Below, piece after piece: positions 3,681-42,196 of a stretch of DNA of 64,000 nt. The DNA is taken from positions 67,029 through 131,028 of the forward strand of contig JAADHJ010000044.1 of the NCBI GenBank assembly GCA_013151915.1, read 5' to 3'. The stretch comes from Deltaproteobacteria bacterium. GTDB taxonomy: Bacteria > BMS3Abin14. Each line of letters starts with the position of its first letter. Positions within the stretch are counted from its first letter, which is position 1. The position numbers were made by a program, and so were the translations under genes. A model generated the notes under the pieces. It did not search any database. It worked only from the letters and a program-made list of their open reading frames with translations, and was not told the origin of the DNA.

Positions 3681-3703
3681 TTATTCATTTCATTTATCAT
3701 TGT

Positions 3704-4300
3704 TTAGTCCTTTGGATAAAACTTTGATACAGTATCTCCAACCTCTTCAAGCCATCGGCTCCGTTGTTCAATTGTGCTTATTATAACCATTTTAAACATC
3801 TTTCGATGGAATCGTGTAACTCCGCAAAGACCAAATATGCAATTCTTCCATATAGTTTCTAAAGGATCACCAAAAACCTTCTCCTCTCTTTCAGGTAAAG
3901 TATTGGATGTATTGAATACAATAGCTGATTGTGCTTTCAATAATCCTTTTGGTACCCCTTCGCCCTCGTCGCCTTCTTGAAATTCGTATGCAACTCCAGG
4001 ACGAATTACTCTATCCATCCATCCTTTCAAGATTGCGGGCGGCTGACCCCACCAGTTTGGATGAACTATTATAATTCCATCAGAATCTTTCAATTCATTA
4101 CAATACTTCTCTATATACGGATGAATATCTGCATCTCTTTCCATCTCATTTGCAGGAAGAATTGGATCAAAACTTTCTTCATATAAATCATGAAAAAATA
4201 TATGATGGCCTTGCGATATAAGTGTCCTTAATGCAATATCGGCAATTGCGTGATTGAAGCTATTGCTGTCTGGATGCGCAAGTATTATTGATAATTTCAT
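3704..4300 (-). CDS. Flavodoxin-like fold NAD(P)H dehydrogenase (quinone) / Flavodoxin_2 family
   Basis: The N-terminus MKLSIILAHPDSNSFNHAIAD and overall length and pattern are typical of MdaB/KefF-like FMN reductases. The gene is AT-rich, like its neighbour. Confidence 0.65.
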   Translation of the reverse strand: MKLSIILAHPDSNSFNHAIADIALRTLISQGHHIFFHDLYEESFDPILPANEMERDADIHPYIEKYCNELKDSDGIIIVHPNWWGQPPAILKGWMDRVIRPGVAYEFQEGDEGEGVPKGLLKAQSAIVFNTSNTLPEREEKVFGDPLETIWKNCIFGLCGVTRFHRKMFKMVIISTIEQRSRWLEEVGDTVSKFYPKD

Positions 4301-10758: not shown

Positions 10759-10829
10759 GGTTTTTGACCCTGTTCCCCAGCCCTTTCCCCGGTCTATCGA
10801 TGCATGTTCTCACCAGGTTTATCTTATTG

Positions 10830-11414
10830 CTAAGGAATAACAGAGGACACACGGCATGGTATTCCAAGCCATCTCCCGGTTCTTGATTTGTACGAACGGT
10901 ACTCCTCTCCATAAATACGCTCAAGATAAGGCTCCGCCAGCCGAGTAGTATACAAACAGATAACAATAGTGGCCGCTCCAGTAAGCACAAAAGCAAGCCC
11001 TGATCGGCCGGCAAGCGATATACCTGAAAGATAAAGAAGACAGCCGATAAACTGCGGATTTCTACTCCATCTATATATCCCGGTGGTTATGAGTTCTGAA
11101 ATGTCCTGTCCGCAACTTCTGCGCAAGGAGCGGAACTCAATCATCCCTGTTGCCAATACAACAATACCAACCACAATCAAAACCAAACCACCCGTTAAGG
11201 CGAATATCTTGTTAAGCGGTATCAGCCACAACCCATATAGCGACGAGAGGATTATCGCCAGATGGTAAAACCCCCACATAACAAACCAAAGGTTCAAAAG
11301 TTTATTTGTGAAGACCCCATTTCTATCATAGGTCTTCTTAATCTCGGAAAAAACATATATTCCCAATACCACCCATATGCCTATGGAAACACTCAAACCT
11401 ATGTACAACCACAT
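10830..11414 (-). CDS. Isoprenylcysteine carboxyl methyltransferase (ICMT)/PEMT-family membrane methyltransferase
   Basis: The C-terminal signature is RWSRNPQFIG...EP.LE..YGEEY..Y. Several TM helices are predicted. The gene has lower GC. The start is taken at MWLYIG, which has an AGGAAG ribosome-binding site. Confidence 0.65.
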   Translation of the reverse strand: MWLYIGLSVSIGIWVVLGIYVFSEIKKTYDRNGVFTNKLLNLWFVMWGFYHLAIILSSLYGLWLIPLNKIFALTGGLVLIVVGIVVLATGMIEFRSLRRSCGQDISELITTGIYRWSRNPQFIGCLLYLSGISLAGRSGLAFVLTGAATIVICLYTTRLAEPYLERIYGEEYRSYKSRTGRWLGIPCRVSSVIP

Positions 11415-11454
11415 TATTATCTTCCTTCTCTTGTTTGGATCATACTGGAAATGG

Positions 11455-11512
11455 GTGCCTGGAACCCGACGTCCAAAGTTCAACGTTCAAGGTTCAACGT
11501 TCAAGGTTCAAC
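11455..11512 (+). repeat. GTTCAA-hexamer repeat element, copy A1 (CCTGGAACCCGACGTCCAAAGTTCAACGTTCAAGGTTCAACGTTCAAGGTTCAACC)
   Basis: Direct repeats of GTTCAAC/GTTCAAG. A related element occurs at 12964..13010 and in the MITE-like insert at 22840..23073. Confidence 0.6.
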
Positions 11513-11609
11513 CACCACCCGTTCGCGGTGAGCCGCTCCTTAACCCGATAAGGTACGCATTACCCGGAGGACCTCATGCTTTCAATTGTCAATGATCAGA
11601 TTCATGCAC

Positions 11610-12878
11610 TTATTTGTGCGACAATTCAAAAGAAAACTGCTTCTCGTAAAACTCTCTTGCAGCATTTTGTTTGTCAGCTACGTAGGAATAAATTTCTTCA
11701 TAATTCTCGAAAAGCAGGTTGACGATTCTGGTATCCAGAAGGCGATTATCAGAAAGCTGTTTAAGGATTTGAACTACACCGTCTTTGGACATACCTTTTC
11801 TATATGGTCGATCTTCAGTCAGTGCGGTAAATATATCTGCAACCATCATAATTCGCGCCCCTGTGCTCAGGTCGGCTGCCGTGCAGTGAAAAGGATATCC
11901 TGATCCATCAGGTCTTTCATGGTGATAAGCGGCCCATTCGGCAATCTGCTTAAGACCTCCGATGGTATTAATCACAGAATAGGTATAGTAGGTGTGTGAT
12001 TTCATAACCGCCATCTCTTCTTTTGTAAGTTTCCCGGGTTTATCCAGAATGCTGTTAGGAATCGCCAGTTTACCTATATCATGCAAATTCCCTGCAACCT
12101 CCATAAGCCCTATTTCTGTTGCCGTCAGGCCAAAAACTTTTGATAGCATAGAGGCAGACGCGGCAACACCTGAAGAATGTGTTGAAGTAAAACGAGAACG
12201 GAAATCAATTATATTCCGAAAAAGCTCCGATATTAAGGATATATCCGAAAAGTCTATTTCTGTTTTTCTGAAAGGTCCTTCGTTAAGGAGAAAAGAATAT
12301 AACCTGGGAGAAACCAGGTCCAACCAGAATTCTTCGCGATTAGAGATCGCCAGGAAAAGATCTATAGCCTGAGAATGAAAAAGAGAACCAGACAAAGCTT
12401 CTATTTCAAGGATAATATTTTCATGCTGATGAAGAATATAATGATCTCGTTTTATTTCACGCTCAAGATGATCGGCAAGAAATAATAATTGTGAATCGAA
12501 AACAAGAGGAGTTTCAATTGATTCTTTCCAATTTTGCCATTCGTTGTGATGACATCTGATTATTTTTGACGACTCCTTTAACCACGGTATGTTACTGAAC
12601 AAAATTTCACCGCGTATGCAATGACCTTCGGTGTTTTCGACTTCAGAATTTCGAAGGGAGATTTTTTCCTCCAATGAAAGAGCGCCGATATCATGGAGCA
12701 ATGCAGCTATGAAAATATTTTCCAATCTTTCATTTGTGAGACCTGCCGCTTTCCCCATTTCCCACACAACAAATGCCGTCCTTTGTTGATGTTGAATTAA
12801 TGAAGGATCGGCCAAATCCATGGCATCGGAGAGTGAAAGGATAAGATTGCCTAAATTGACTGTAATTTGACGCTGCAT
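11610..12878 (-). CDS. HD-GYP domain c-di-GMP phosphodiesterase-type protein (N-terminal degenerate HD + C-terminal HD-GYP)
   Basis: Motifs LHDIGAL, LHDIGKLAIP and HHERPDGSGYP are present. The gene is low-GC (about 40%) and flanked by direct GTTCAA repeats. Confidence 0.75.
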   Translation of the reverse strand: MQRQITVNLGNLILSLSDAMDLADPSLIQHQQRTAFVVWEMGKAAGLTNERLENIFIAALLHDIGALSLEEKISLRNSEVENTEGHCIRGEILFSNIPWLKESSKIIRCHHNEWQNWKESIETPLVFDSQLLFLADHLEREIKRDHYILHQHENIILEIEALSGSLFHSQAIDLFLAISNREEFWLDLVSPRLYSFLLNEGPFRKTEIDFSDISLISELFRNIIDFRSRFTSTHSSGVAASASMLSKVFGLTATEIGLMEVAGNLHDIGKLAIPNSILDKPGKLTKEEMAVMKSHTYYTYSVINTIGGLKQIAEWAAYHHERPDGSGYPFHCTAADLSTGARIMMVADIFTALTEDRPYRKGMSKDGVVQILKQLSDNRLLDTRIVNLLFENYEEIYSYVADKQNAAREFYEKQFSFELSHK

Positions 12879-12963
12879 ATCGTTTCCCCCAAATTATTTC
12901 AGCTGACCAGCTACGACTTCGTAAAAAAGATATTCTTCCAACTATTTGAAAATATGGTTTATC

Positions 12964-14347: not shown

Positions 14348-15399
14348 GAACCCCAAAGATGATTGGGGAAAGGAGCGTATTTCCCCCCGGACGCGGGTGC
14401 CGGCCGGCCCTTTTCATCCTGGCCGCGTCATTGTCTGTCATCATCCTTCAGACATCCATCGCCTCAGGCGCAAACAACGGCAGGGCTGTCCCTTTCCTCG
14501 ACCTGTACCGCCCCGCCGGGAAACCCGGGATTCAGGTTGCCGCGTTCAAGTCTTTTGGATCCACGCGGATTCCATATGCTGACGCAACGGTGTTCGTCGT
14601 GTTACCTGACGGCGGGGCCTGGTTCGGAAAAGCGGACTTACTCGGCCGCTGCGAGATCCCGGCGCGGGTGATTCTACCCCATATTGAAACGAAGAGCGGC
14701 CCGGCGACCTTGCGGGTTGCCCTGTCGCTTAACGGGACCGTGGATGAGAAGAGGATCACCGTCTCCAAAAGCGAGCTTGTTCAGTATGCTGATAGCGCGG
14801 CCGACAGTAAGGTTGAAGAGGGGAACGCCCTGGCGCGGAAGGGTGGGCTTCGTGAGGCGATCTCCCTTTACAGGGAGGCGCTTGTCTTAAATCCCCTTTC
14901 CTCGCGGGCGGCCTACAACATCGCCTTCGCCTACGAGAAGCTGGGGATGATGCGCATGGCTGTCGCCGCCTACGCGGATTACCTGCTTCAATGCCAGGCA
15001 AAGGCGCAGGATCGGGAGGACGTCAAGAGGAGAGTCATCAATCTTTCCCGGGGGTTGACCCCCCCGCCCCCCGTGCTCGCGCGCATCTTCGGCATGCTTG
15101 ACAAGGCGTCCGCGCTTGCCGTTGGGGGAGATTCTTTTGGGGCCTTGCGGCTCTACGAGATAGCCCAGTCCGTCGCTCCCTGGTGGGCGGAACCCTACTA
15201 CGGTGCGGGAATCGTATACTACCACTTAGCGATCCAGAACTCTTTTTCCTATGCGGACAATGCCATCCGCTGTCTGAAGAATTTTCTGGCCGCCGTCCCC
15301 CCGGAGGACGCCAGGATTGAGGCCGTACGAAAGAGGGTAAAAGATCTGCTGACAATAAAGGAGGGATTAGATGCACCGAAAACAGTTTCTTCATACTAG
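14344..15399 (+). CDS. Secreted TPR-repeat protein
   Basis: Signal peptide plus TPR-like A/Y/L-rich repeats (AISLYREALVLNP, AAYNIAFAYEKLG, AEPYYGAGIVYYHLAI). The start may be GTG 14344 or ATG 14359. Confidence 0.55.
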   Translation: MRTPKMIGERSVFPPGRGCRPALFILAASLSVIILQTSIASGANNGRAVPFLDLYRPAGKPGIQVAAFKSFGSTRIPYADATVFVVLPDGGAWFGKADLLGRCEIPARVILPHIETKSGPATLRVALSLNGTVDEKRITVSKSELVQYADSAADSKVEEGNALARKGGLREAISLYREALVLNPLSSRAAYNIAFAYEKLGMMRMAVAAYADYLLQCQAKAQDREDVKRRVINLSRGLTPPPPVLARIFGMLDKASALAVGGDSFGALRLYEIAQSVAPWWAEPYYGAGIVYYHLAIQNSFSYADNAIRCLKNFLAAVPPEDARIEAVRKRVKDLLTIKEGLDAPKTVSSY

Positions 15400-16918
15400 C
15401 CTTCGGATGAGGACAACGGTTCTTTACGCCTTGACTCTGGCCATGGCGCTGTTTCTTGTCTCCTGCGCCGGGGGGCAGGTCAAGAAAAAGGAGCCGGTCT
15501 ACCGTTTAGGTGTGCAGATCTCTACGTTCGCTCCCCTGGTCGCGCATGATCTCGGTCTGCCCGAGGATATCAAAGGTGTGCTTGTCATGGCTGTGTCCCA
15601 GGGGTCGCCTGCGGCTACGGCGGGGGTCCGGTCCGGGGACGTCATCGCGGGAATAAAGATGCCTGACGGAAAACTGCAGGAAACGCCCGATACCACTGCC
15701 CTTTTAGAACTGCTCAAGAAGATGCCCATAGACCGGTCGGTAGCGCTTTCCATCCTGCGGGACGGAAAAACGATGGATATCTCCAGCATGCGGAGCACCA
15801 GGCAATTTTCCGGGTACGTTCAGCCCGGGTCCCGGCCCGAGCCGAGGACGATCAAGGTGGCGCCGGACGGATCCGGCGACTGCCGCACCATCACCGGGGC
15901 CATGCTTTCCGCCCGTCCGGGCGACACGATCCTGCTCTCTCGTGCTCCCGGTCCCGGCGGGGTGTACGGTTCCTTCCAGCTCTTCCTTGACAACCTGACC
16001 GTTCGCTCGGAAGACCCGGCGAACCGGGCGGTTGTGCAGCAGATCGTTGTGGATGGCCTTTCCGGAGTGAAGCTGGCCGACCTCGAGTTCCAGGTGAGCC
16101 AGCAGGGAAGCTGGCCCGGAGTGCATGTCCAGGGTTCCAAAGAGGTGACGGTGGAAAACTGCACCTTCTCAGGATATGTAAAAGCGGTCACCATCAGCGG
16201 TTCCAGAGAAGTCTTTATCAGTGGCAACCGTATGGAAGAGAATGCCCTGGGAATATTGGTGGATTCCGGTTCGGAATTTAAAATTAAGGATAACCTGATT
16301 ACCGGAACCGGGGTCCGGTGGGCCGACAGTAAGGGGATCTACATCTCAGGTTCCCGTGGAACGGTTTCGAATAATACGATCCTTTACTACAAGGTAGGGA
16401 CCGAAGCGTTTATAAATGACCTGAAGAACGGCGGGTATGGCGGGTATAATGTTACCGGCGTAGGTATCTACGTGGGCCAGGGTTCCAACGTTTCCATCGA
16501 GAACAACATCGTGTATGACAACAGCGCCGGGATATACGTGCAAGCGGGCGAAACAACCCACTACCGCGTCGAGTACAACGATATCTTTCAGAATACCATG
16601 GAGACCGGACAAACTGGAAGTAGAGACTTTGCGGATTACCTTACCGGCTCCGACTGGAACATATCAAAGGGGGTCAAGAAGAGGCATGAGTCGTCGCCCA
16701 TTCTGTCGCTTTCCATATGGGACCACAACTACTACGCGCCAAACCCCATGCCCCTTTCGCGGACTAACCTTTCCCGGGATCCGTTTTTCAACGACCCTGT
16801 GCGCGGCGACTATCGCCTGGCCGCCGACTCGCCGCTCGTCGGAAGGGGCAGAGGCGGAACCTACATCGGAGCTTTCCCGCCGATAGAGCAAAAGGCAGGG
16901 ACCGGGGAGTTCAAGTAA
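15371..16918 (+). CDS. Lipoprotein with PDZ domain and right-handed parallel beta-helix (pectate-lyase/NosD-like) repeats, paralog 1
   Basis: Lipobox LVSCAGG. PDZ region GVLVMAVSQGSPAATAGVRSGDVIAGI. The beta-helix N-cap is DGSGDCRTITGAM...PGDTILL, followed by repeated NNTI/ENNIVYDNSAGIYV-type rungs. Confidence 0.7.
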   Translation: MHRKQFLHTSLRMRTTVLYALTLAMALFLVSCAGGQVKKKEPVYRLGVQISTFAPLVAHDLGLPEDIKGVLVMAVSQGSPAATAGVRSGDVIAGIKMPDGKLQETPDTTALLELLKKMPIDRSVALSILRDGKTMDISSMRSTRQFSGYVQPGSRPEPRTIKVAPDGSGDCRTITGAMLSARPGDTILLSRAPGPGGVYGSFQLFLDNLTVRSEDPANRAVVQQIVVDGLSGVKLADLEFQVSQQGSWPGVHVQGSKEVTVENCTFSGYVKAVTISGSREVFISGNRMEENALGILVDSGSEFKIKDNLITGTGVRWADSKGIYISGSRGTVSNNTILYYKVGTEAFINDLKNGGYGGYNVTGVGIYVGQGSNVSIENNIVYDNSAGIYVQAGETTHYRVEYNDIFQNTMETGQTGSRDFADYLTGSDWNISKGVKKRHESSPILSLSIWDHNYYAPNPMPLSRTNLSRDPFFNDPVRGDYRLAADSPLVGRGRGGTYIGAFPPIEQKAGTGEFK

Positions 16919-17966: not shown

Positions 17967-19478
17967 TTGATGGGTCGAAAACAGTATTTTCATACCAGTC
18001 TTCGGATGAGGACAATGGTTCTTTACGCCGTGGTTCCGGCCATGGCGCTGTTTCTTGTCTCCTGCGCCGGGGGGCAGGTCAAGAAAAAGGAAGCGGGTTA
18101 TCGTATCGGCGTGAACATGGGTACCCTCAATCCCGCATTGGCGCAGGATCTCGGTTTGCCGGGGAACCTGAAAGGTGTGGTTGTCGTGGCGGTGTCCCAG
18201 GGGTCGCCCGCGGCTGCGGCGGGGATCAGACCAGGGGATGTTGTCCTGGGGATAAAAACGGCGGACGGAAAGCTGCAGGAAACGCCCGACACCAATGTAT
18301 TCGTAGAGTTATTGAAAAAGATGCCGATAGATCGCCCGGTGAAATTCTCCGTGCTCCGCGGCGGAAAAACGATGGATATTTCCAGCACGCAGGGCACCGG
18401 GCAATTTTCCGGGTACGTTCAGCCCGGGTCCCGGCCCGAGCCGAGGACCATCAAGGTGTCGCCGGACGGATCCGGCGACTGCCGCACCATCACCGGGGCC
18501 ATGCTTTCCGCCCGCCCGGGCGACACGATCCTGCTCTCTCGTGCTCCCGGTCCCGGCGGGGTGTACGGTCCCTTCCATGTTTTCCTGGACAACCTGACCG
18601 TTCGCTCGGAAGACTTGGCGAACCGGGCGGTTCTGCAGCAGATTCTTTTAAAGGGTCTTACCGGTGTGAAATTGAGCGGCCTCGATTTTAGGGGGAGTCC
18701 GCAGGGAAGTTGGCCGGGGGTGCATATCAACAACTGCAACAGGGTCACGGTGGAAAACTGCACCTTCTCCGGGTACTTCAGGGCGGTGGGCATCCGCGCC
18801 TCCCAGGGGGTTTCCGTTACGGGCAGCCGTATGAAGAAAAACGCTCAGGGGATCGTTGCTTCTCAAACGGATTTTAAAATTAACGGCAATCTTATTGTCG
18901 GGGCACAAAGCGGGGGGCACGACAAGCAGGGGATCTGGATCTCAGGTTCCCGTGGAACGGTTTCGAATAATACGATCCTTTACTACAAGGTAGGGACCGA
19001 AACGTTTATAAATGGCCTGAAGAACAGCAGGTATAATATTACCGGCGTAGGTATCTACGTGGGCCAGGGTTCCAACGTTTCCATCGAGAACAATATCGTG
19101 TATGACAACAGCGCCGGGATATACGTGCAAGCGGGCGAAACAACCCACTACCGCGTCGAGTACAACGACATCTTTCAGAATACCACTAAGACCGGACAGA
19201 CGGAAGATGGAGATTACGCGGATTACCTTACCGGGTCGAACTGGAACTTCTCCAAGGGGACCAGGGTCATAAAGAAATCGTCTCCCCTCCTTACGGTTTA
19301 CGGATGGGAGCATAACTACTTTGCTCCCATCCCCGTGCCCCGCTCACGGACCAACCTTTCCCAGGCTCCGTTCTTCAACGACCCGACCCTGGACGATTAT
19401 CGGCTGGCCGCCGACTCTCCCCTCGTCGGGAGGGGCAGAGGCGGGACCTATATTGGAGCTTTGCTTTCCCGCCGATAG
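17967..19478 (+). CDS. Lipoprotein with PDZ domain and beta-helix repeats, paralog 2
   Basis: Same architecture as 15371..16918. The 5' roughly 300 bp and 3' roughly 500 bp are nearly identical in nucleotides to paralog 1, and the middle has diverged. The C-terminus is truncated by a 5-bp GCTTT duplication relative to paralog 1. Confidence 0.7.
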   Translation: MMGRKQYFHTSLRMRTMVLYAVVPAMALFLVSCAGGQVKKKEAGYRIGVNMGTLNPALAQDLGLPGNLKGVVVVAVSQGSPAAAAGIRPGDVVLGIKTADGKLQETPDTNVFVELLKKMPIDRPVKFSVLRGGKTMDISSTQGTGQFSGYVQPGSRPEPRTIKVSPDGSGDCRTITGAMLSARPGDTILLSRAPGPGGVYGPFHVFLDNLTVRSEDLANRAVLQQILLKGLTGVKLSGLDFRGSPQGSWPGVHINNCNRVTVENCTFSGYFRAVGIRASQGVSVTGSRMKKNAQGIVASQTDFKINGNLIVGAQSGGHDKQGIWISGSRGTVSNNTILYYKVGTETFINGLKNSRYNITGVGIYVGQGSNVSIENNIVYDNSAGIYVQAGETTHYRVEYNDIFQNTTKTGQTEDGDYADYLTGSNWNFSKGTRVIKKSSPLLTVYGWEHNYFAPIPVPRSRTNLSQAPFFNDPTLDDYRLAADSPLVGRGRGGTYIGALLSRR

Positions 19479-29741: not shown

Positions 29742-32391
29742 TCTCTATCTTATTGACGGCAGTTCCTATATCTATCGCGCTTATCACGCCATACGCGGCC
29801 TGTCCACAAGGGATGGTTTTCCCACAAATGCCGTGTTCGGCTTTGCCAATATGCTGCTGAAGATTCTGCGGGATCATCAGCCGACCTACGTTGCCATAGT
29901 CCTGGATTCCAAAGGGCCCACATTCCGCCACGAACGATACCCGCAATACAAGGCCAACCGCCCCCCCATGCCCGAAGATCTCAGGGTTCAGCTGCCGCGC
30001 ATTGAAGAACTCATTGATGCGTTCAATATCCCGGCCCTGCAAAAGGAGGGGTTCGAGGCCGACGACATCATTGCCACCCTCGTAAAACGTTGGTCCGGGA
30101 AGGTGGACAGTACCGTCGTCGTTTCGTCGGACAAGGATCTCATGCAGTTGGTCTCCGGGCGTGTCCGCATGCTCGATACCATGAAGGAAAAGTGGATCGG
30201 GGTTGAGGAGGTCCGGGAACGCTTTGGCGTGGACCCTGAGCGGGTCCCGGATGCCCTCGCCCTGGCGGGCGACACAAGCGACAATGTTCCGGGACTGCCG
30301 GGCGTTGGTCCAAAAACCGCGGGGAAGCTCATATCCGCCTACGGTACCCTGGAGGGCCTCATCGAAAGAAAAGATGAGATTGATGGTAAGGTCGGCCGGA
30401 ATCTTGCTTCCGGGGTAGACGCTGTCCGACTGGCCCTATCGCTGGTAACCCTCGACAGGGATGTTGATCTTCGTATTACCATGGACGATCTTACGGCCTG
30501 CGGGCCTGATGTGGAGTCCCTCCGGACGATCTTCCAGGAACTTGGTTTTACCAGCCTTATCAGGGGACTGACGCCGCAGACAAGCCTTGGCCGCGAGGGT
30601 TACCATATCATCGGCAGCGAGGAGGAATTGATAGATCTGGCCGGGCGTCTTCGGGGTGTCGATATTCTGGCGGTGGACACGGAGACAACCGACAGAGATG
30701 CCATGAAAGCCCGCCTGGTGGGCATCTCCCTTTCATGGGAACCGGGCCGGGCTGCCTATGTACCCCTGACACACAGCTACCTCGGGGTTCCCCGGCAGAT
30801 ACCTGAACCACGGGCCAGGGAGATTCTCGGCCCCGTTCTCGGTGACCCGTCCATCCACAAGGTCGGACAGAACGTCAAGTACGACATGAAGGTGCTTGCG
30901 CGTTCCGGCTGGGCGCTTGAAGGCGTTCGATGGGACACGATGATCGCTTCCTACCTGGTTAACCCTTCCAGACGGTCCCACAGCCTTTCGGAGATCTCCG
31001 CGGAGCGGCTCAACCACACCATGATCTCCTACGATGAGGTCACCAAGAAGGGGAAAAAGCGGATACTGTTTTCCGATGTCCCGGTGGAAGAAGCAGGGAT
31101 ATACTCGTGCGAGGACGCCGACGTAACTTTCAGGGCACTGAAGCCCCTGCTGGAGGACCTCGAGAGGATGGAGCTTCTCGATCTGTTCCAGAATGTGGAG
31201 ATGCCGTTGGTTCGGGTTCTCAAGGAGATGGAGATGGTCGGGGTGCTGCTGGATATCCGGCCTCTTCTGGATCTATCCTCGGAGCTTTTGGACAGGCTCA
31301 AGGAGCTGGAGGCAAAAATTCACATGGAGGTCGGCAGACCCTTCAACGTCGGTTCTCCCAAACAGCTTTCCCATGTTCTGTTCGAGGTCCTGAAGCTCCC
31401 CGCGCTCAAGAAAACCAAGACAGGATACTCCACCAGCAGTGATGTCCTTATCGAACTTTCCTCAAAACATCACCTGCCGGCCATGGTGCTCGAGTACAGG
31501 AGCATGGCGAAGCTCAAATCCACCTACCTTGATGCCCTTCCCGCCCTCATCAACCCGGAGACCGGGAGGATCCACACCTCGTTCAACCAGACCGCCACTG
31601 CCACAGGCAGGCTTTCGAGCTCCAATCCCAACCTGCAGAACATCCCGATCCGGACCGAGCTTGGCAGAAGGATACGCGGGGCGTTTGTCGCGCCGGAGGG
31701 AAGTGTCCTGTTGTCGGCGGACTACTCCCAGATCGAGCTGAGAATCCTTGCCCACCTTTCCGGGGACACGGAGCTGTTGGAGGCGTTTCGCAAGGGCGAG
31801 GACGTCCATGCCAGAACCGCCCGGCAGGTGCTCGGTGCCGGCGAGGATGTGGAACCTGAGCTGAGAAGGCGGGCCAAAGTCATAAATTTCGGCATCATCT
31901 ACGGGATGAGCGCTTTCGGGCTGTCAAAGGAGCTTGGAGTCCATCCGAAAGAGGCCGCGGAGATCATCGATGGATACTTTGACGTCTATTCGGGGGTAAA
32001 GGCCTATATTGATCGGACGCTGGAAGAAGCCAGGACGAACGGATACGTCATGACGCTCATGAACCGGCGACGCTACCTCCCGGAGCTCACGAGTGCCAAT
32101 CCAAACCAGAGGCAGCTCGGGGAGCGTATGGCGGTAAACACTCCCATTCAGGGGACGGCGGCGGATCTCATCAAGGTGGCCATGATCGCGATCCACGGGG
32201 AACTGGGGGAACGGGTCCCGGAGGCGAGGATGATACTTCAGGTTCACGATGAACTTGTTTTCGAGGTACCCGAGGATCATCTCGCCCGGACCTGTGAGAT
32301 CGTCAGGGATGGCATGGAGAAGGTTGCAGCGCTGCAGGTCCCGCTTGTTGTTGATTTGGGAACAGGCGCGAACTGGGCGGAGGCCCATTGA
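29734..32391 (+). CDS. polA: DNA polymerase I (5'-3' exonuclease, 3'-5' exonuclease, polymerase domains)
   Basis: N-terminus LYLIDGSSYIYRAYHA and polymerase motifs DYSQIELRILAHLS, RRRAKVINFGIIYG and QVHDELVFE are present. Length is 885 aa with an apparent TTG start. Confidence 0.9.
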   Translation: MSSLYLIDGSSYIYRAYHAIRGLSTRDGFPTNAVFGFANMLLKILRDHQPTYVAIVLDSKGPTFRHERYPQYKANRPPMPEDLRVQLPRIEELIDAFNIPALQKEGFEADDIIATLVKRWSGKVDSTVVVSSDKDLMQLVSGRVRMLDTMKEKWIGVEEVRERFGVDPERVPDALALAGDTSDNVPGLPGVGPKTAGKLISAYGTLEGLIERKDEIDGKVGRNLASGVDAVRLALSLVTLDRDVDLRITMDDLTACGPDVESLRTIFQELGFTSLIRGLTPQTSLGREGYHIIGSEEELIDLAGRLRGVDILAVDTETTDRDAMKARLVGISLSWEPGRAAYVPLTHSYLGVPRQIPEPRAREILGPVLGDPSIHKVGQNVKYDMKVLARSGWALEGVRWDTMIASYLVNPSRRSHSLSEISAERLNHTMISYDEVTKKGKKRILFSDVPVEEAGIYSCEDADVTFRALKPLLEDLERMELLDLFQNVEMPLVRVLKEMEMVGVLLDIRPLLDLSSELLDRLKELEAKIHMEVGRPFNVGSPKQLSHVLFEVLKLPALKKTKTGYSTSSDVLIELSSKHHLPAMVLEYRSMAKLKSTYLDALPALINPETGRIHTSFNQTATATGRLSSSNPNLQNIPIRTELGRRIRGAFVAPEGSVLLSADYSQIELRILAHLSGDTELLEAFRKGEDVHARTARQVLGAGEDVEPELRRRAKVINFGIIYGMSAFGLSKELGVHPKEAAEIIDGYFDVYSGVKAYIDRTLEEARTNGYVMTLMNRRRYLPELTSANPNQRQLGERMAVNTPIQGTAADLIKVAMIAIHGELGERVPEARMILQVHDELVFEVPEDHLARTCEIVRDGMEKVAALQVPLVVDLGTGANWAEAH

Positions 32392-32421
32392 TGTTGATGA
32401 CTTTTGCAAAGTCATCAACAT
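32391..32421. repeat. Short palindrome ATGTTGATGACTTTTGCAAAGTCATCAACAT (repeat C) overlapping the polA stop codon
   Basis: A near-perfect 31-bp palindrome. The same GTTGATGACTTTTTGC...AAGTCATCAAC motif recurs at 37451, 42193, 22942, 20861 and 59479. Confidence 0.55.
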
Positions 32422-32455: not shown

Positions 32456-33448
32456 ATGATTGACCGGGATATCCGTTCCTGCTTCGTAACCGGTGGAACA
32501 GGATTTATCGGAAGCCACCTGGTGGACCATCTTCTTAAGCAGGGGGTGAAGGTACGCTGCCTGGTCAGGAGGCCGTCCAAGCTCAGGTGGCTGGCGGGGC
32601 GGCCTGTTCAGATTATACAGGGTGATCTGGCCTCTGACGAGGCTCTTGCGGCCGGCGTCGCCGGTGTCGACGCGGTATTTCACCTTGCCGGCCTCGTTGC
32701 AGCGGGAAGCCGGGAGGAATACTTCAGGGTTAACGCGGACGGGTGCCGGAGCCTTGTGAAGGCGGTTGGTCTAAGTGGGGGAAAAACCACCGTTTTGGTC
32801 TACGTTTCAAGCCTGGCGGCTTCCGGGCCCAGTGAAGCGGATGGGGAGGTTACAGAGGAGGATTCTCCGGCGCCCATTACCTCTTACGGGATGAGCAAGC
32901 TTGAGGGGGAAAGAGCTCTGGAGGCCGCCTCGGGCCGGCCGATCGTGATTGTCAGACCCCCCGCCGTGTACGGCCCGAGGGACAGGGAGATTCTCCCCTT
33001 CTTTCGCATGGGAAACAGGGGATTCTTTCCCATCATTAACAGCGGAGCGCGTATCAGTCTCGTTCATGTGGAGGACCTGGCAAAGGGAATCTATCGCGCC
33101 GCGTGTTACGGCGGTCCCGGTGAAGCCTACTTCATCACCGGGCATGAGACAGTCAGGATCTCCGATATGCCTCGGTTCCTTTCGGAGGCTCTCGGAAAAA
33201 AGGTAAGGGGGGTGAGGATTTCACCAGCCCTTGTGAGCGTGGCGGCGGGTCTTTCCGAGGCATGGGGAAGGATCCGTGGCCGGATGCCCGTTTTTAACAG
33301 GGACAAGGCCAGGGAGCTGGCCGCGCCCGGTTGGGTGTGCAGTTCCGCCAAAGCGTTGAGGGATCTTTCGTTCCAGGCTGAGATCAGCATCAAGGATGGT
33401 TTTTCGCAGACAGCTCGATGGTACAGGGAGAACAACTGGATCAGGTAA
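32456..33448 (+). CDS. NAD-dependent epimerase/dehydratase-fold reductase (NDUFA9/3beta-HSD-like; candidate 3-ketosphinganine/ceramide reductase, CerR-like)
   Basis: Rossmann motif TGGTGFIGSHL and catalytic YGMSK are present. The start is taken at ATG 32456, after the polA stop. It lies adjacent to spt. Confidence 0.65.
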   Translation: MIDRDIRSCFVTGGTGFIGSHLVDHLLKQGVKVRCLVRRPSKLRWLAGRPVQIIQGDLASDEALAAGVAGVDAVFHLAGLVAAGSREEYFRVNADGCRSLVKAVGLSGGKTTVLVYVSSLAASGPSEADGEVTEEDSPAPITSYGMSKLEGERALEAASGRPIVIVRPPAVYGPRDREILPFFRMGNRGFFPIINSGARISLVHVEDLAKGIYRAACYGGPGEAYFITGHETVRISDMPRFLSEALGKKVRGVRISPALVSVAAGLSEAWGRIRGRMPVFNRDKARELAAPGWVCSSAKALRDLSFQAEISIKDGFSQTARWYRENNWIR

Positions 33449-33462
33449 GACCAACGAGGAGG

Positions 33463-34650
33463 ATGAAAGTGGGAATTTTCGACAAGTGTTGTCAGCTCGA
33501 ACGGCTCCAACAGGTGCGCGAGGCTGGTCTGTACCCCTATTTCAGGGTTATCGAGTCACAGCAGGATCCGGAAGTGATTATAAACGGGAAAAAGATAATC
33601 ATGTGCGGTTCCAACAACTATCTGGGTCTTACCTCTCATCCCAAGGTCAAGGAGGCCGCCGTTGAGGCAACCCGGAAGTATGGCACGGGGTGTGCCGGCT
33701 CGCGTTTTCTCAACGGGACACTGGATATCCATGTAAAGCTGGAGGAAAAACTGGCAAGGTTTTTCCGCAAGGAAGCCGCGCTGGTTTTTGCAACCGGTTA
33801 TCAGACCAACCTCGGTGTTATATCAGCTCTTGTGGGCAGGGGGGATGTTGCCGTCAGCGACCGTCAGAATCACGCCTCTATCGTGGATGGATGCAAGTTG
33901 AGTTATGGGGAGATAAGGAAGTTCCGCCACAACGACGTGGAGGATCTGGACCGGCTTCTGGATAGCGAGCGGGATCGGAACAAGCTGATCATCGTGGACG
34001 GTGTTTTTTCCATGGAGGGCGATATCGCTCCCCTGTCCGAGATTATTGCCCTGAGGGGGAAACACGATTTCGGGATCATGGTGGACGACGCGCACGGTGT
34101 GGGCGTCCTGGGTGAATCGGGAAGAGGGACCAGTGAGCATTTCGGCATGGAGGATGAGGTGGACGTCATTATGGGGACCTACAGCAAATCCCTGGCGACC
34201 ATCGGCGGGTTTGTGGCGGCCTCTCAGAAAATAGTGGATTATCTGAAACACTCCAGCCGCTCCATGATCTTTTCCGCCAGTCTGAGTCCGGGCAGTGTCG
34301 CTGCGGTAAGCGTGGCCCTGGACATTATTGAGGATGAACCCGAGCGTCGGGAAAGGTTGTGGAATCATACGAACTGGATGCTGGAGGAATTCCGGTCCCG
34401 CGGTTTTGACGTGGGCCACGCCGCCACTCCCATTATCCCTATCGTGGTGGGAGACGATTTGCTCGCTTTCAGAATGAGCCTCATGCTGCTCGAGGAAGGC
34501 GTCTTCACCAATCCGGTGGTCAGCCCGGCCACTCCGGCGGACAGGGCACTCATCCGCACCAGCTACATGGCCACCCACACCGAGGAGCACCTCAACAGGG
34601 TCATGGACGCTTTCGTGAAGGTGGGGCGGGACGTCGGGCTGATAGGGTGA
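33463..34650 (+). CDS. spt: Serine palmitoyltransferase-type alpha-oxoamine synthase
   Basis: PLP-dependent alpha-oxoamine synthase fold. The residues match SPT rather than Kbl or BioF at diagnostic positions (SRFLNGT, FRHNDVEDLDRLL, TYSKSLATIGGFVAAS versus Sphingomonas SPT SRMLNGT, FRHNSVEDLDKRL, TFSKSVGTVGGFV). A GAGGAGG ribosome-binding site lies upstream. Confidence 0.75.
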   Translation: MKVGIFDKCCQLERLQQVREAGLYPYFRVIESQQDPEVIINGKKIIMCGSNNYLGLTSHPKVKEAAVEATRKYGTGCAGSRFLNGTLDIHVKLEEKLARFFRKEAALVFATGYQTNLGVISALVGRGDVAVSDRQNHASIVDGCKLSYGEIRKFRHNDVEDLDRLLDSERDRNKLIIVDGVFSMEGDIAPLSEIIALRGKHDFGIMVDDAHGVGVLGESGRGTSEHFGMEDEVDVIMGTYSKSLATIGGFVAASQKIVDYLKHSSRSMIFSASLSPGSVAAVSVALDIIEDEPERRERLWNHTNWMLEEFRSRGFDVGHAATPIIPIVVGDDLLAFRMSLMLLEEGVFTNPVVSPATPADRALIRTSYMATHTEEHLNRVMDAFVKVGRDVGLIG

Positions 34651-34656
34651 CAATCC

Positions 34657-35778
34657 ATGATGAGTCTTAAAGTAGTTGACGCCGAAAGCGGAAGCGCCCA
34701 TCGCGACTTCATCGGGCTTCCCTGGGCCATCAATCGGGATGACCCCTACTGGGTCCCGCCCTTAAGGAGGGAGGTCGCGAAACTCCTTTCCCTTAAACAC
34801 CCCTTTTTCCAGCACGCCGAACGAAAACTTTTCCTTGTAAAGGACGGTGAACAGCCCGTTGGCCGTATAGCGGCCATTATCAACCACAACCACAACAGGT
34901 TTCACGACGAGAAAGCGGGGTTTTTCGGGTTTTTCGAGGCGTTTCCCGATCCGGGCATATCCTCGGTGCTGTTTGCTGCGGCGGAGGGGTGGCTCCGGGG
35001 AAAGGGCGCTGAATTCGTCATGGGACCCATGAACCCCAGCACCAATGAGGAGTGCGGCCTGCTGGTGGACAACTTTATGTCTTCACCCTTGGTGATGATG
35101 ACCTACAACCCCCCCTACTACATGGATCTGATCGAGGACGCAGGGTACGCAAAGGCCAAGGACCTTTATGCCTATTCCTTCAATACCCCCCGGACCATCC
35201 CTCCCAGGCTGGAGAAGCTTACAAAACGGATCGAGAAACGAGAAAAAGACCTTGTAACCCGGCCGGTGGACATGAAGCGTTTTGCCCGGGAGATCGAGGT
35301 GGTAAAAGCCATCTATAACGATGCGTGGGAAAAGAACTGGGGGTTCGTTCCCATGACCGATGCCGAGATGGATCAGATGGCCAAGGATCTTAAACCGATC
35401 ATCGTTCCGGAACTTACCATCCTTGCATTCATCGGTGACGAACCGGCGGGCTTTATCATGAGCCTTCCGGACTACAACCAGGTCCTGAAGGTACTCGATG
35501 GCCGGATGACTCCATGGGGTGTTTTCCGGGCAATAAGGGCGGCGAAGAGGATACGGACGGGTAGGTGTATAACTCTGGGTGTGAGGGAGAAGTTCCGAAA
35601 ACGTGGGCTCGAAGCGCCCCTGTTCGCGGCCACTCTGCGCGCCGGTATTGAGAAGGGATATCGGTACGGGGAATTTTCATGGATTCTCGAGGACAACACC
35701 CTGGTAAACGAAACTATCAACAAGGTATTCTCCGCTACTCATTACAAGACCTACCGGATTTACCGCAAAGACCTGTAG
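34657..35778 (+). CDS. GNAT/FemAB-like N-acyltransferase-fold protein (candidate bacterial ceramide synthase, bCerS-like)
   Basis: No hit to classical enzymes. Length (373 aa) and secondary-structure pattern fit acyl-CoA N-acyltransferase-like folds. It is genetically coupled to spt (7-bp gap). Confidence 0.5.
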   Translation: MMSLKVVDAESGSAHRDFIGLPWAINRDDPYWVPPLRREVAKLLSLKHPFFQHAERKLFLVKDGEQPVGRIAAIINHNHNRFHDEKAGFFGFFEAFPDPGISSVLFAAAEGWLRGKGAEFVMGPMNPSTNEECGLLVDNFMSSPLVMMTYNPPYYMDLIEDAGYAKAKDLYAYSFNTPRTIPPRLEKLTKRIEKREKDLVTRPVDMKRFAREIEVVKAIYNDAWEKNWGFVPMTDAEMDQMAKDLKPIIVPELTILAFIGDEPAGFIMSLPDYNQVLKVLDGRMTPWGVFRAIRAAKRIRTGRCITLGVREKFRKRGLEAPLFAATLRAGIEKGYRYGEFSWILEDNTLVNETINKVFSATHYKTYRIYRKDL

Positions 35779-35787
35779 GCGGATAGT

Positions 35788-36390
35788 GTGGCGCTCCGTG
35801 AATTACGGGCCGAGATTCCCAGGACCATACTCCACGTGGGCGGCGGTGCCCTGCTCGCCATCCTGGGGTATGGACTGCCGGTCCCGTCCAACCGGGTCGT
35901 ACTGGGAATAATCTTCCTTGCCGCCGTCGCAGTGGAGGCGGGGCGGAAGACATCCCCCGTTGTCGACGGTCTTACAGCAACGTGGCTCGGGGTGTTCATG
36001 CGTCCGTCCGAGCGATTCCGTGTGACCGGAGCACTTCCCTTCACAGGGGGAATATTCCTTACTTTTCTCCTTTTTCAAAAAGAGGTCGCCCTCCTGGCGG
36101 TAATTCCCCTGGTCGTCGGTGATAGAGCGGCCATCCTTGTCGGAAAGTGGATAGGGCGGGTCAGGTTCGGGAAAAAGTCCCTGGAGGGAAGCCTGGCCTG
36201 TTTTATTGTGAGTTTCCTGACCATTTTTTGTGTTGCCGGATTTGCCCCCGGTGCCTTTCCTTACCCGGCGTGGATTCTGTTGGGCGCCTCGGTTGTGGGG
36301 ACGGTGGCCGAAGCCCTGCCTAGCCCATTCGATGACAACCTGACCATTCCTTTGGCTGTGGCCGTGTTTATATACTGGGTCGGTGCGTGA
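35788..36390 (+). CDS. CTP-transferase-1-like / dolichol-kinase-like integral membrane protein
   Basis: The C-terminal motif KSLEGSLA between TM helices is characteristic of the CdsA/dolichol kinase/DUF92 superfamily. It has a GTG start. Confidence 0.5.
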   Translation: MALRELRAEIPRTILHVGGGALLAILGYGLPVPSNRVVLGIIFLAAVAVEAGRKTSPVVDGLTATWLGVFMRPSERFRVTGALPFTGGIFLTFLLFQKEVALLAVIPLVVGDRAAILVGKWIGRVRFGKKSLEGSLACFIVSFLTIFCVAGFAPGAFPYPAWILLGASVVGTVAEALPSPFDDNLTIPLAVAVFIYWVGA

Positions 36391-37118
36391 ATTCCGGCGT
36401 CTCCGAGAAGGACCGTGATGCACCCTCGGTCCCCTTTCGAAGGGCTCTGACCGATGCCACGCCCATTATTCTCGGGTACATTCCAATGGGAGCCGCCTAT
36501 GGCATTATCGCCCGCCAGAGCGGCATGGGGCTTTTCGCCGCTGTCTTCATGTCTCTTGTGGTTTTTGCGGGGGCGAGCCAGTTCATCGCGGTTGGCCTGC
36601 TGGCGGGAGGCGCCACACCCTTCGAGGTTGTTCTTACCACATTCTTTGTCAATCTGAGGCACGTGCTCATGAGCGCCTCCCTGTCGCCTTACTTCACGAA
36701 GGTCAGGCGTCTGGTCATCCCCCTGATTGCGTGGGGCGTGACGGATGAGACCTTCGCCATATCCATCGGAAGGTTTCAGCGTAAGGAGGCGGATTGCCGA
36801 TACAGTCTGGCCCTGAACTACATTGCCTATGCGAGTTGGGTCACAGGCACCGTTGCGGGCGCCTACGCCGGATACCTGGTCCCCGGGGTTCTCCAGAACA
36901 GCCTGGGTTTTGCCCTTTACTCCATGTTCGTGGGCCTGCTGGTCCTCCAGATTTCCGACAGGCTCCAACTTGTGGTCGCTGTCGGGGCCGCGGCCCTCTC
37001 CGTGTTTTTTTCAACCTTCATGGGAGGCACGTGGCATATTATTACCGCTTCCATAGTGGCCGCGACGGTGGGCCTGGTACTGGAGACCGTTGGTGGGGGT
37101 GTGGCGGAGCTGAATTGA
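36387..37118 (+). CDS. azlC: AzlC-family branched-chain amino-acid permease component
   Basis: AzlC signature ILGYIPMGAAYGI...AGASQF. It has a GTG start overlapping the upstream stop. Confidence 0.75.
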   Translation: MNSGVSEKDRDAPSVPFRRALTDATPIILGYIPMGAAYGIIARQSGMGLFAAVFMSLVVFAGASQFIAVGLLAGGATPFEVVLTTFFVNLRHVLMSASLSPYFTKVRRLVIPLIAWGVTDETFAISIGRFQRKEADCRYSLALNYIAYASWVTGTVAGAYAGYLVPGVLQNSLGFALYSMFVGLLVLQISDRLQLVVAVGAAALSVFFSTFMGGTWHIITASIVAATVGLVLETVGGGVAELN

Positions 37119-37122
37119 CCAT

Positions 37123-37447
37123 GGAAACCAGACGACTCATATTTATTTTCCTGGGCATGGGCGCCGTTACCTACCTACCCAGACTTATCCCCCTCGCCGC
37201 CCTGTCCCAGGCCGCCCTCCCGGACCGTCTGATGAGGTGGCTTCGCTACCTGCCCCCGGCCATCCTCTCCGCCCTTATCCTCCCTGGGGCTGTCACCTCC
37301 GGCGGCGCCATGGACCTGACTCCGGCGAACCCATCGGTCTGGGCTCTCCTGCTTAGTTTCGCCGTAGCGGTTAAAACCAGGAGTTTGATCCTGACCATGG
37401 TTGTGGGCGGCATCGTGATGTACCTCGGTCAGGTCCTGTTGGGCTGA
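37123..37447 (+). CDS. azlD: AzlD-family small membrane protein
   Basis: 108 aa with three hydrophobic segments (TYLPRLIPL....LRYLPPAILSALI). It sits immediately after azlC. Confidence 0.65.
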
Positions 37448-40927: not shown

Positions 40928-42196
40928 ATGAGCACCCAGAGAATAGCCGCCCTTGAAGGGCGCACCACGGAGATAATGAGGCAGGTCGCGGAGGACGAGG
41001 AAGTCTCCACGGACCAGGTGATTGAGGTTCTTGCCGCCGGGACGGCCGCCATTCCGGCCAACCCTGCCCACACGTCCCTGAAGCCCAAAGGAATAGGGGG
41101 CCCGTTTACCGTCAAGGTCAACGCCAACTTTGGAACCAGTCTGGCATGCAACGATCCGGACCAGGAGCTCGCCAAGCTGGAGGCGGCTATTGACGCCGGT
41201 GCCGACGCCATTATGGATCTTTCCACGGGCGGTGACATGGAGGGATTGCGGAAGGAGATCATCAAGCGTTCCACCGTTCCGGTGGGAACGGTTCCTATCT
41301 ATGACGCGGCAGTGAGCGCCTACGAAAGAAACGGAGACCCATCCTGTATTACTCCCGACGATCTTTTCGATGCCGTAAGGAAACACGCGGAAGCCGGGGT
41401 GGATTTCGTAACCCTGCACTGCGGCGTCACCAGGTCGGCGGTGGCGAAGGTTCGCAGTTCAGCCCGGGTGACCCGCATAGTCAGCCGTGGGGGATCGCTT
41501 CTTGCCGCATGGATGGAGAGGGAAGGGAAGGAGAATCCGCTTTACACGTATTACGACGACCTGCTGACGATCCTGAAGGAACACGATGTCACGATCAGCC
41601 TTGGTGATGGGCTGCGCCCTGGAAGCCTTGCGGACGCCACCGACCCCGCCCAGATAGAGGAACTCGTCACGCTGGGAGAACTGACTATCAGGGCCTGGGA
41701 TGCCGGTGTCCAGGTGATAGTGGAGGGGCCCGGTCACATTCCTCTGCATCAGATTGAGACCAACGTCGTGCTCCAGAAGAGGTTGTGCCACGGGGCTCCC
41801 TTTTACGTCCTTGGACCGCTCGTGACCGATGTTGGAGCGGGGTATGATCATATTACCGGGGCCATCGGCGGCGCCATCGCAGGGATGGCGGGAGCCGATT
41901 TTCTCTGCTATGTCACTCCCGCCGAGCATCTCGGCCTACCCAATGTGGACGACGTCAGGCACGGAGTCATGGCCTCGCGTATAGCCGCCCATGCCGTGGA
42001 TATTGCAAGGGGAAACCGGAGAGCCATAGACCGGGACGCTGCCATGTCGCGATGCCGGGTGACACTGGACTGGCAGGGACAAATGGACCACGCACTCGAT
42101 CCGGTGGAGTTTAAACGGAGGTTTGCCGATCACCCGGTTCTCGAAGACGTATGTTCTATGTGCGGCAAGCTTTGCGCCATGAAGATTTTCAGTTGA
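40928..42196 (+). CDS. thiC: Phosphomethylpyrimidine synthase, short anaerobe-type
   Basis: The ThiC core is conserved throughout and the C-terminal cluster ligands are C-x2-C-x4-C (CSMCGKLC). Confidence 0.9.
   Translation: MSTQRIAALEGRTTEIMRQVAEDEEVSTDQVIEVLAAGTAAIPANPAHTSLKPKGIGGPFTVKVNANFGTSLACNDPDQELAKLEAAIDAGADAIMDLSTGGDMEGLRKEIIKRSTVPVGTVPIYDAAVSAYERNGDPSCITPDDLFDAVRKHAEAGVDFVTLHCGVTRSAVAKVRSSARVTRIVSRGGSLLAAWMEREGKENPLYTYYDDLLTILKEHDVTISLGDGLRPGSLADATDPAQIEELVTLGELTIRAWDAGVQVIVEGPGHIPLHQIETNVVLQKRLCHGAPFYVLGPLVTDVGAGYDHITGAIGGAIAGMAGADFLCYVTPAEHLGLPNVDDVRHGVMASRIAAHAVDIARGNRRAIDRDAAMSRCRVTLDWQGQMDHALDPVEFKRRFADHPVLEDVCSMCGKLCAMKIFS

Follow-up and report, generated by a model that had tools for sequence, protein, structure and literature searches.

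A 64,000-nucleotide stretch of contig JAADHJ010000044.1, from a deltaproteobacterial assembly (GCA_013151915.1) and referred to here at its full length as the window, carries four co-directional, near-contiguous genes at 32456-36390. The first three, at 32456-35778, are best read as a bacterial gene module for (dihydro)ceramide synthesis, of the Bacteroidota/delta-proteobacterial type, a reading to which we assign a probability of about 0.82. They encode an extended short-chain dehydrogenase/reductase (SDR) that is a candidate CerR-like reductase, an alpha-oxoamine synthase (AOS) of the serine palmitoyltransferase (Spt) clade, and a tandem-GNAT acyltransferase of the bCerS family. This reading is carried by homology to genetically defined enzymes, by conserved Spt catalytic residues, and by linkage and gene fusions that recur across phyla. 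The fourth gene encodes a small membrane protein whose place in the pathway is considerably less certain.

The synthase provides the strongest assignment. NF047600 (serine palmitoyltransferase, CFB type, CFB being Bacteroidota, formerly Cytophaga-Flavobacteria-Bacteroides) is its top NCBIfam model at 558.9 bits, followed by TIGR01825 (437 bits), Kbl (415 bits), BioF (397 bits) and 5-aminolevulinate synthase (ALAS, 264 bits). Among PDB sequences, the Spt of Sphingobacterium multivorum (3a2b/8guh) scores 441 bits, compared with 300 for Sphingomonas Spt, 275 for Kbl, 264 and 243 for cysteate acyltransferases, 224 or less for BioF and 198 for ALAS. The best matches in an annotated plasmid collection are Bacteroidales Spt (50-52% identity) and the AOS genes of clusters with the same trio, while genes annotated kbl or bioF in that collection are ∼40-42% identical. 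In a neighbour-joining tree of 17 sequences, 13 Spt-like proteins (the window AOS, Sphingomonas, S. multivorum, Bacteroidales and cluster-linked AOS) separate from a small outgroup of Kbl and BioF with 100% bootstrap support (300 replicates, bipartition counting).

The active site is in agreement with these rankings. The catalytic residues H137, D208, H211, T239, K242 and R365 are conserved and align with H159, D231, H234, T262, K265 and R390 of Sphingomonas Spt, including the lysine that binds pyridoxal phosphate (PLP). The GSRFLNGT and GTYSKSLATIGGF motifs agree with those of Spts and are different in Kbl and BioF. By these sequence criteria the AOS is Spt-like and is neither Kbl nor BioF. 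The same choice had been made in the original prediction, an earlier reading of this DNA from its letters: the peptide strings it cited, SRFLNGT, FRHNDVEDLDRLL and TYSKSLATIGGFV, all occur in the translation, and a tree of the kind it proposed as a check, here with Kbl and BioF references, groups the AOS with Spts.

The protein encoded 3' of the synthase is, on homology, a member of the bCerS family and a predicted N-acyltransferase. The bCerS and CerR proteins are reportedly defined in a Nature Chemical Biology paper of 2022. Its Pfam match is weak, Acetyltransf_1 at E=3.3e-5 (residues 217-336), and the protein has no NCBIfam match and no PDB sequence match, a behavior shared by the reference proteins. 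Searches of annotated replicons with tblastn nevertheless recovered full-length homologues, including E. coli YghO and a Sphingomonas parapaucimobilis protein. In full-length blastp alignments, the window GNAT shares 33% identity with YghO (222 bits), 33% with the Sphingomonas N-acetyltransferase 3' of lptF/lptG (214 bits) and 38% with a Streptomyces cluster GNAT (261 bits). YghO keeps 40 of the 48 residues that are invariant in the window GNAT family, and the Sphingomonas protein 36. An AlphaFold2 (AF2) model with a predicted local distance difference test score (pLDDT) of 92.9 has tandem GNATs as its best PDB folds (E=2e-14 and below).

Membership of bCerS and CerR was judged indirectly, through E. 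coli YghO/ECD_02852-type and Sphingomonas counterparts that are tied to Caulobacter CC_1154 and CC_1164 in the literature (PMC9386255, PMC11324152). The first of these papers pairs yghO/ECD_02850 with CC_1154, ECD_02852 with CC_1164 and ECD_02854 with CC_1162. Genomic context adds to the case for bCerS. The S. parapaucimobilis locus (L013/L016) encodes, in order, an NAD(P)H-binding protein, an acyl carrier protein (ACP), Spt, an ATP-binding protein, LptF, LptG, a desaturase and the N-acetyltransferase, which mirrors the layout published for the sphingolipid genes of Caulobacter, with lptF2/lptG2 (CC_1156/CC_1155) next to cerS (CC_1154) (PMC11324152). The E. coli yghO locus contains genes for an acyl-AMP ligase, an epimerase, an ACP, an AOS and YghO. 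Of the B-strain cluster, the genes for synthase, reductase and acyl-ACP are missing in E. coli K-12. The GNATs of the window, Streptomyces, Rubrobacter and Aureispira carry a canonical CoA-type GNAT motif A (R/Q-x-x-G-x-G/A; RKRGLE in the window protein, residues ∼303-310), which is missing from YghO (L014) and Sphingomonas bCerS (L013), whose clusters encode a dedicated ACP. This difference in motif A may reflect a different acyl donor.

The gene 5' of the synthase encodes a CerR-like candidate reductase. Pfam Epimerase matches it at E=1.9e-34, and both SDR motifs are present: GxxGxxG (GGTGFIGS, residues 13-20) and YxxxK (YGMSK). By blastp it is 39% identical to the Streptomyces cluster SDR (171 bits), 32.5% to the Sphingomonas SDR beside ACP-Spt (139 bits) and 29% to the E. 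coli ECD_02852-type epimerase (117 bits). Its top three tblastn matches in the plasmid collection, from Aureispira (206 bits), Streptomyces (158 bits) and Rubrobacter (157 bits), all lie inside AOS/GNAT/SDR clusters. Caulobacter CerR has been reported as periplasmic and peripherally membrane-associated (PMC11087976); the Rossmann motif of the window SDR starts at residue 13 and leaves no obvious signal peptide, and its Sphingomonas and E. coli counterparts are alike in this respect. The original prediction had described the two neighbors of the synthase as an NDUFA9/epimerase-fold CerR-like reductase and a 373-aa acyltransferase-fold bCerS candidate, and the homologies to the Sphingomonas, E. 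coli and Streptomyces cluster proteins and to YghO bear out both descriptions.

Genomic neighborhood analysis provides further evidence. A GNAT profile scan of one genome per GTDB species returned at least 598 relatives across many phyla, and linkage was counted in 80 loci. These span Nitrospirota, Desulfobacterota/'delta proteobacteria', Planctomycetota, Acidobacteriota, Zixibacteria, Eisenbacteria, Elusimicrobiota, Spirochaetota, Ignavibacteria, Calditrichota, Gemmatimonadota, Bdellovibrionales and Chloroflexota, among others. Within 8 kb of the GNAT, 62 of the 80 loci have an Spt-like AOS, 48 have an SDR and 44 have the two together; several of those that have neither gene are truncated contigs. 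The gene order of the window, SDR>AOS>GNAT, recurs in 24 loci. This association of SDR, AOS and GNAT is far beyond chance. The trio is also found in Aureispira, Rubrobacter and Streptomyces replicons, and the closest genomes (GCA_020350725.1, 'Proteobacteria bacterium SZUA-204' and others) are 65-79% identical for the cluster proteins.

Gene fusions point in the same direction. An Spt-like AOS and a bCerS-like GNAT are naturally joined in proteins of 777-780 aa (P0219, P0268, P0345), and a 940-aa protein (P0319) fuses the GNAT to an acyl-AMP ligase, indicating that the GNAT is independently tied to Spt and to fatty-acyl activation. A tandem GNAT-GNAT duplication of 784 aa also occurs among the fusion proteins P0219, P0268, P0345, P0319 and P0208. 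The family as a whole is large: a hidden Markov model (HMM) search of 1.84 billion representatives gave 2,960 50%-identity clusters at E<=1e-30, and metagenome-assembled genomes from as many as 40 phyla, Desulfobacterota among them, are described as having co-located Spt-like, bCerS and CerR genes (PMC11334938). With such numbers, together with the GTDB species matches, the cluster is not rare, and the earlier view that it is notable because sphingolipid genes are patchy in bacteria was overstated.

Gene content and Spt affinity suggest which type of pathway is encoded. Within the window, no homologues were found of a specialised ACP (AcpR), an acyl-ACP synthetase/fatty acyl-AMP ligase (FAAL)/acyl-AMP ligase (AasR), LptF/G or a desaturase; the sole match at E<1e-3 in that search was a Sphingomonas ATP-binding protein over 69 residues at 2422-2628, inside a sensor-kinase-like open reading frame (ORF). 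The absence of AcpR, AasR and LptFG, combined with the subgroup affinity of the Spt, points to the Bacteroidota/delta type (an Spt subgroup described in PMC9386255) rather than the Caulobacter five-gene type. Since no dedicated ACP or acyl-ACP synthetase gene lies nearby, acyl-CoA is the presumed donor, and the window cluster is presumably a minimal, acyl-CoA-dependent three-gene version of that type.

The reaction scheme, including its substrates and product, the sequence of steps and any contribution of the membrane protein, is inferred. Spt, a PLP enzyme, would join serine or a close amino-acid analogue to a long-chain acyl thioester, yielding a 3-keto long-chain base. The tandem GNAT would N-acylate the amino group of this base, and the CerR-like SDR would reduce the 3-keto group with NAD(P)H; whether acylation or reduction comes first depends on which of two published models is right. 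The 200-aa membrane protein may phosphorylate a lipid alcohol connected to the pathway, either ceramide or the diacylglycerol (DAG) produced by phospho-head-group transfer to ceramide.

The membrane protein is identical to JGI gene call P0121, and its homologues are labelled 'dolichol kinase' by JGI. It has no Pfam match: PF01148 (CTP_transf_1) is not reached even at E<=10, and 7 of 43 relatives match that family weakly (best E=2.5e-4). The motifs GD..A...G...GR, KSLEGS, E and DDN are invariant in its family. Over ∼65 residues, in the GDxxAxxxGxxxGR...KSLEGS region, a family profile aligns with CdsA of T. maritima (4q2e; E=0.0045). The AF2 model has eight helices (pLDDT 96.5), and in a Foldseek search its sole high-probability PDB match is CdsA 4q2g (probability 0.96, E=0.095, template-modelling (TM) score 0.40). 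On profile, predicted fold and JGI labels, the protein is probably a remote member of the CdsA/Sec59 superfamily, and the earlier description of a CdsA/dolichol-kinase-like membrane enzyme holds at that level. No member of its subfamily has been characterized.

The distribution of this gene is mixed. In the 80-locus set it follows the GNAT only in the three closest relatives, which also keep polA and azlC synteny, and in the Nitrospirota loci L035 and L044. The Nitrospirota proteins score 158 bits (L035) and 170 bits (L044) against the family profile and are 61% identical to each other. Most relatives lie away from the cluster, in unrelated contexts. The linked cases fall into three sublineages: the trio with the membrane protein (the window clade), the trio with the membrane protein and a convergent PAP2_3 gene (the Nitrospirota type), and pairs of PAP2_3 and membrane protein (L109, L133, L188). 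With the membrane-protein family as anchor, a PAP2_3 gene was present in 4 of 42 loci that reach 6 kb or more.

PAP2_3 proteins are themselves recurrent neighbors of the trio. A PAP2_3 (PF14378)/PAP2_C protein of ∼300 aa with PSGHT...HYxxD motifs adjoins it in 23 of the 80 GNAT-anchored genomes, in three arrangements (Table 1). The PAP2_3/PAP2_C Pfam families include the Aur1 inositol phosphorylceramide (IPC) synthase and sphingomyelin (SM) synthases. By analogy with these enzymes, the PAP2_3 neighbors are plausible candidates for phosphosphingolipid head-group transferases. Literature searches returned nothing usable on a PAP2-Spt link or a bacterial ceramide-phosphoethanolamine synthase. Relatives of the membrane protein paired with PAP2_3 were seen at L109 (4258-5621), L133, L188, L044 (9074-10522), L035 (9144-10625) and L112-L115. 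The L109 pair has a 4-nt overlap and no trio nearby; the Nitrospirota loci hold both the pair and the trio.

Several observations weigh against the ceramide reading as a whole. The AOS falls short of the NF047600 equivalog cut-off of 640 bits, which Parabacteroides Spt passes at 683.8 bits, though it remains the best model by 122 bits; its amino-acid substrate could therefore differ. The outgroup of the AOS tree is thin (two Kbl and two BioF, all from Bacillota). In a 13-sequence neighbour-joining tree of SDRs, HpnA and a haloarchaeal epimerase branch, weakly supported, within the cluster SDRs, and since the tree gives no separation from HpnA-type enzymes, CerR orthology is argued from similarity ranking and linkage. 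The window has no PAP2_3 homologue. Finally, the trio occurs in only 4 of the 42 loci anchored on the membrane-protein family, and adjacency in the window clade is weak evidence because the whole neighborhood (polA, azlC) is syntenic. The sub-threshold score also speaks for the possibility that the trio, with unchanged pathway logic, makes a related, non-canonical sphingoid lipid from another amino acid, for instance a 1-deoxyceramide (alanine), a glycine-derived base or a sulfonolipid (cysteate). Residues N100 and R378 of Sphingomonas Spt are likewise not conserved in the AOS, nor in Bacteroidales or Sphingobacterium Spt, and 1-deoxyceramides and sulfono-1-deoxyceramides in euxinic water have been attributed to Desulfobacterota and/or Bacteroidota (PMC11334938). 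However, the active-site motifs are identical to those of the serine-using S. multivorum and Bacteroides Spts, and characterized cysteate acyltransferases score far below Spt, on which ground a cysteate acyltransferase was rejected; a non-canonical product is thus judged unlikely. Threonine catabolism or biotin synthesis, in which the AOS would be Kbl or BioF and the SDR an SDR-type threonine dehydrogenase (TDH), has practically no probability left. The high Kbl and BioF scores are expected inside one enzyme family, whereas the Spt HMM and PDB Spts score 120-165 bits higher, the tree split has 100% bootstrap support, the linkage to a bCerS-family GNAT is conserved, and no bioA, bioD or tdh gene is adjacent. 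The original prediction had named grouping of the synthase with Kbl and of the reductase with epimerase-fold threonine dehydrogenases as grounds for giving it up; the SDR shares 21% identity with the SDR-type TDH of B. thuringiensis and 33-39% with the cluster reductases, and the Kbl/TDH and BioF readings are refuted at the sequence level. It is also very improbable that the SDR is a hopanoid-associated HpnA-like enzyme and the cluster part of hopanoid modification. HpnA is the top NCBIfam match of the SDR, it nests among the cluster SDRs as described, and in the distant relative L008 (4634-6602) a gene for a squalene-hopene-cyclase C-terminal domain lies directly beside the cluster SDR. Yet the HpnA score of 173 bits does not reach half of the 367-bit cut-off, a sub-threshold HpnA match is shared by the CerR counterparts of E. 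coli, Sphingomonas and Streptomyces, genuine hpnA reaches 115 bits by tblastn in the plasmid collection against 157-206 for cluster SDRs, and no hpn or shc genes occur in the window. The HpnA reading was rejected on these grounds.

For the fourth gene, the odds are slightly better than even that it encodes a housekeeping polyprenol/phytol-type kinase or another CdsA-like enzyme, present through inherited synteny and with no sphingolipid role. The low count of trios at family-anchored loci and the synteny of the window clade agree with this, as do relatives that lie beside PhyH genes (L010) or among housekeeping genes (L012, L110, L111). What speaks for a link is the 9-nt gap to the GNAT stop codon and, beyond the window clade, a divergent member 6-49 nt past the GNAT in the Nitrospirota loci L035 and L044 and in L113-L115, all of them without polA/azlC synteny. 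The L044 member is 42% identical over the best tblastn segment, with the family-profile score given above, and a convergent PAP2_3 gene follows in these loci; PAP2_3-membrane-protein pairs also occur without the trio in L109, L133 and L188. A tentative and rather unlikely proposal is that the membrane protein and its bCerS/PAP2_3-adjacent relatives constitute a previously undescribed CTP-dependent lipid kinase of phosphosphingolipid synthesis. It might be a ceramide kinase of the membrane that has no relationship to the soluble, ATP-dependent CpgB-type enzyme of Caulobacter, or a kinase resembling yeast Dgk1, a CTP-dependent enzyme that acts on DAG. In the latter case it would recycle the DAG freed when an IPC/SM-synthase-like PAP2_3 enzyme transfers a phospho-head group to ceramide. 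The PAP2_3 pattern motivates, and does not establish, such a role in ceramide or DAG phosphorylation, which the membrane protein could have.

The layout of the locus is compact (Table 1). The genes for SDR and AOS are separated by 14-20 nt, AOS and GNAT by 6 nt, and GNAT and membrane protein by 9 nt. The longest AOS ORF begins at 33418 and overlaps the SDR gene. An alternative start, GTG 33469, gives a 393-aa protein, the same length as the gene calls of relatives, and lies six bases past AGGAGG, a better spacing than that of ATG 33463. Downstream, the membrane-protein gene and azlC share 4 nt, and azlC/azlD are probably co-transcribed with the cluster; there is no evidence of a functional link between them and the ceramide genes. 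An azlC gene follows the cluster only in the closest relatives, which also keep polA synteny. Upstream of the SDR gene lie glnE, ilvE and polA. The last of these ends at 32391, and the 64-nt gap to the SDR gene holds a 14-nt inverted repeat with a 3-nt loop (ATGTTGATGACTTT/AAAGTCATCAACAT). The repeat is AT-rich, and its sequence is not kept in the close relatives L001, L004 and L029; it may be the polA terminator and mark a transcription-unit boundary.

Table 1. Features of the ceramide-type locus in the window, and placement of PAP2_3 genes at related loci.
Feature	Position in window, or loci	Strand	Details
Extended SDR (NAD(P)-dependent epimerase/dehydratase fold), CerR-like 3-keto reductase candidate	32456-33448	+	330 aa; Pfam Epimerase/3Beta_HSD fold
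AOS, Spt clade	33463-34650	+	395 aa from ATG 33463; Pfam Aminotran_1_2
Tandem-GNAT acyltransferase, bCerS (CC_1154/YghO) family	34657-35778	+	373 aa; weak Acetyltransf_1
Polytopic membrane protein, probable remote member of the CdsA / Sec59-VTE5-Dgk1 (CTP-dependent lipid kinase, COG0170) superfamily	35788-36390	+	200 aa
azlC	36387-37118	+	Pfam AzlC E=4e-44
azlD	37115-37447	+	Pfam AzlD E=1.8e-25
Perfect 14+3+14 palindrome	32391-32421		overlaps last base of polA stop codon
PAP2_3 gene, convergent past GNAT	L034, L035, L037, L040, L042-L045, L047, L051, L055, L074, L093		
PAP2_3 gene, between SDR and GNAT	L065, L068, L075, L091, L095, L098, L103, L108		
PAP2_3 gene, on GNAT strand	L033, L053		∼1.2 kb downstream of GNAT

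Elsewhere in the window, two stretches (2001-4300 and 10800-12900) have a GC content of 0.39, compared with ∼0.55 for the window. The ORFs within them (2691-3680, 3704-4300, 10830-11483 and 11610-12878) have a third-position GC content (GC3) of 0.28-0.47; low GC combined with low GC3 suggests foreign or recently acquired DNA. Two further ORFs of ∼500 aa each, at 15371-16918 and 17967-19478 and ∼1 kb apart, share a near-identical N-terminal lipoprotein-like leader (…QFLHTSLRMRT.VLYA…LFLVSCAGGQVKKK), which indicates that they are paralogues. A thiC gene is present at 40928-42196 (ThiC_Rad_SAM, E=7e-184); at the Rfam gathering threshold, no thiamine pyrophosphate (TPP) riboswitch turned up anywhere in the window. 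Scans for tRNAs and Rfam families gave no match there either.

The cluster adds one more uncultured lineage with the genetic capacity for ceramide-type lipids. This is useful for reading environmental sphingolipid signatures and leaves existing knowledge unchanged. Two by-products are of more use. First, GNATs of the YghO family with linkage to Spt and SDR have an extremely wide distribution and include natural Spt-GNAT fusions. Second, two kinds of membrane enzyme turn up repeatedly next to the trio: the PAP2_3 transferase-like protein, at 23 of the 80 loci, and the Sec59/CdsA-like protein, in a few lineages. Both are concrete candidates for a part in the head-group chemistry, largely unknown, of environmental bacterial sphingolipids, and what they do is the only potentially new element.

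Comparison with known systems places the window cluster within this broader landscape. Bacteroidota Spt (S. multivorum 3A2B/8GUH; Bacteroides/Parabacteroides) is the closest characterized relative of the AOS: the active-site motifs are identical, and the AOS ranks the NCBIfam models in the same order as Parabacteroides Spt. The gene arrangement differs, the three genes being dispersed in Bacteroidales (PMC11334938) and contiguous in the window. Bacteroidales Spt also adjoins a soluble DAG-kinase-family gene, an arrangement that the window does not show. In Parabacteroides distasonis (L019, 3816-6173) the two genes are divergently adjacent, so that a lipid kinase beside Spt recurs with a different, unrelated protein family. 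The CTP-dependent lipid kinases and CdsA (Sec59, VTE5, yeast Dgk1, CdsA; CTP_transf_1; COG0170) share with the membrane protein a polytopic architecture and the GDxxAxxxGxxxGR and KSLEGS motifs, but the window protein, at 200 aa, is far shorter than CdsA and stays below the Pfam threshold.

The Caulobacter crescentus pathway, Spt/bCerS/CerR (CC_1162/CC_1154/CC_1164; Stankeviciute et al. 2022; Olea-Ozuna et al. 2021), comprises the same three families, also clustered, and the window proteins are full-length homologues of its E. coli and Sphingomonas counterparts. The original prediction had called the window genes exactly the Caulobacter-type set. This stands for the three protein families and not for the type: the Caulobacter system has five genes including AcpR and AasR, and a search for ACP and acyl-ACP synthetase genes near the cluster, which the original prediction had recommended, found none within the window, nor were LptF2/G2 present. 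The window Spt is, moreover, 39% identical to Sphingomonas Spt versus 50-52% to Bacteroidota Spt, and the window GNAT has the CoA-type motif A that YghO and Sphingomonas bCerS do not. The closest annotated matches for the window SDR and GNAT come from Streptomyces sp. NBC_01001, Rubrobacter radiotolerans and Aureispira anguillae (Actinomycetota, Saprospiria), which carry the same minimal trio with no ACP or AasR. Their loci differ in having the order synthase-GNAT-SDR or a divergent SDR, and in having no CdsA/Sec59-like gene downstream. The Spt/bCerS/CerR trio and its frequent clustering are already established, and the window cluster is an ordinary example of this widespread kind.

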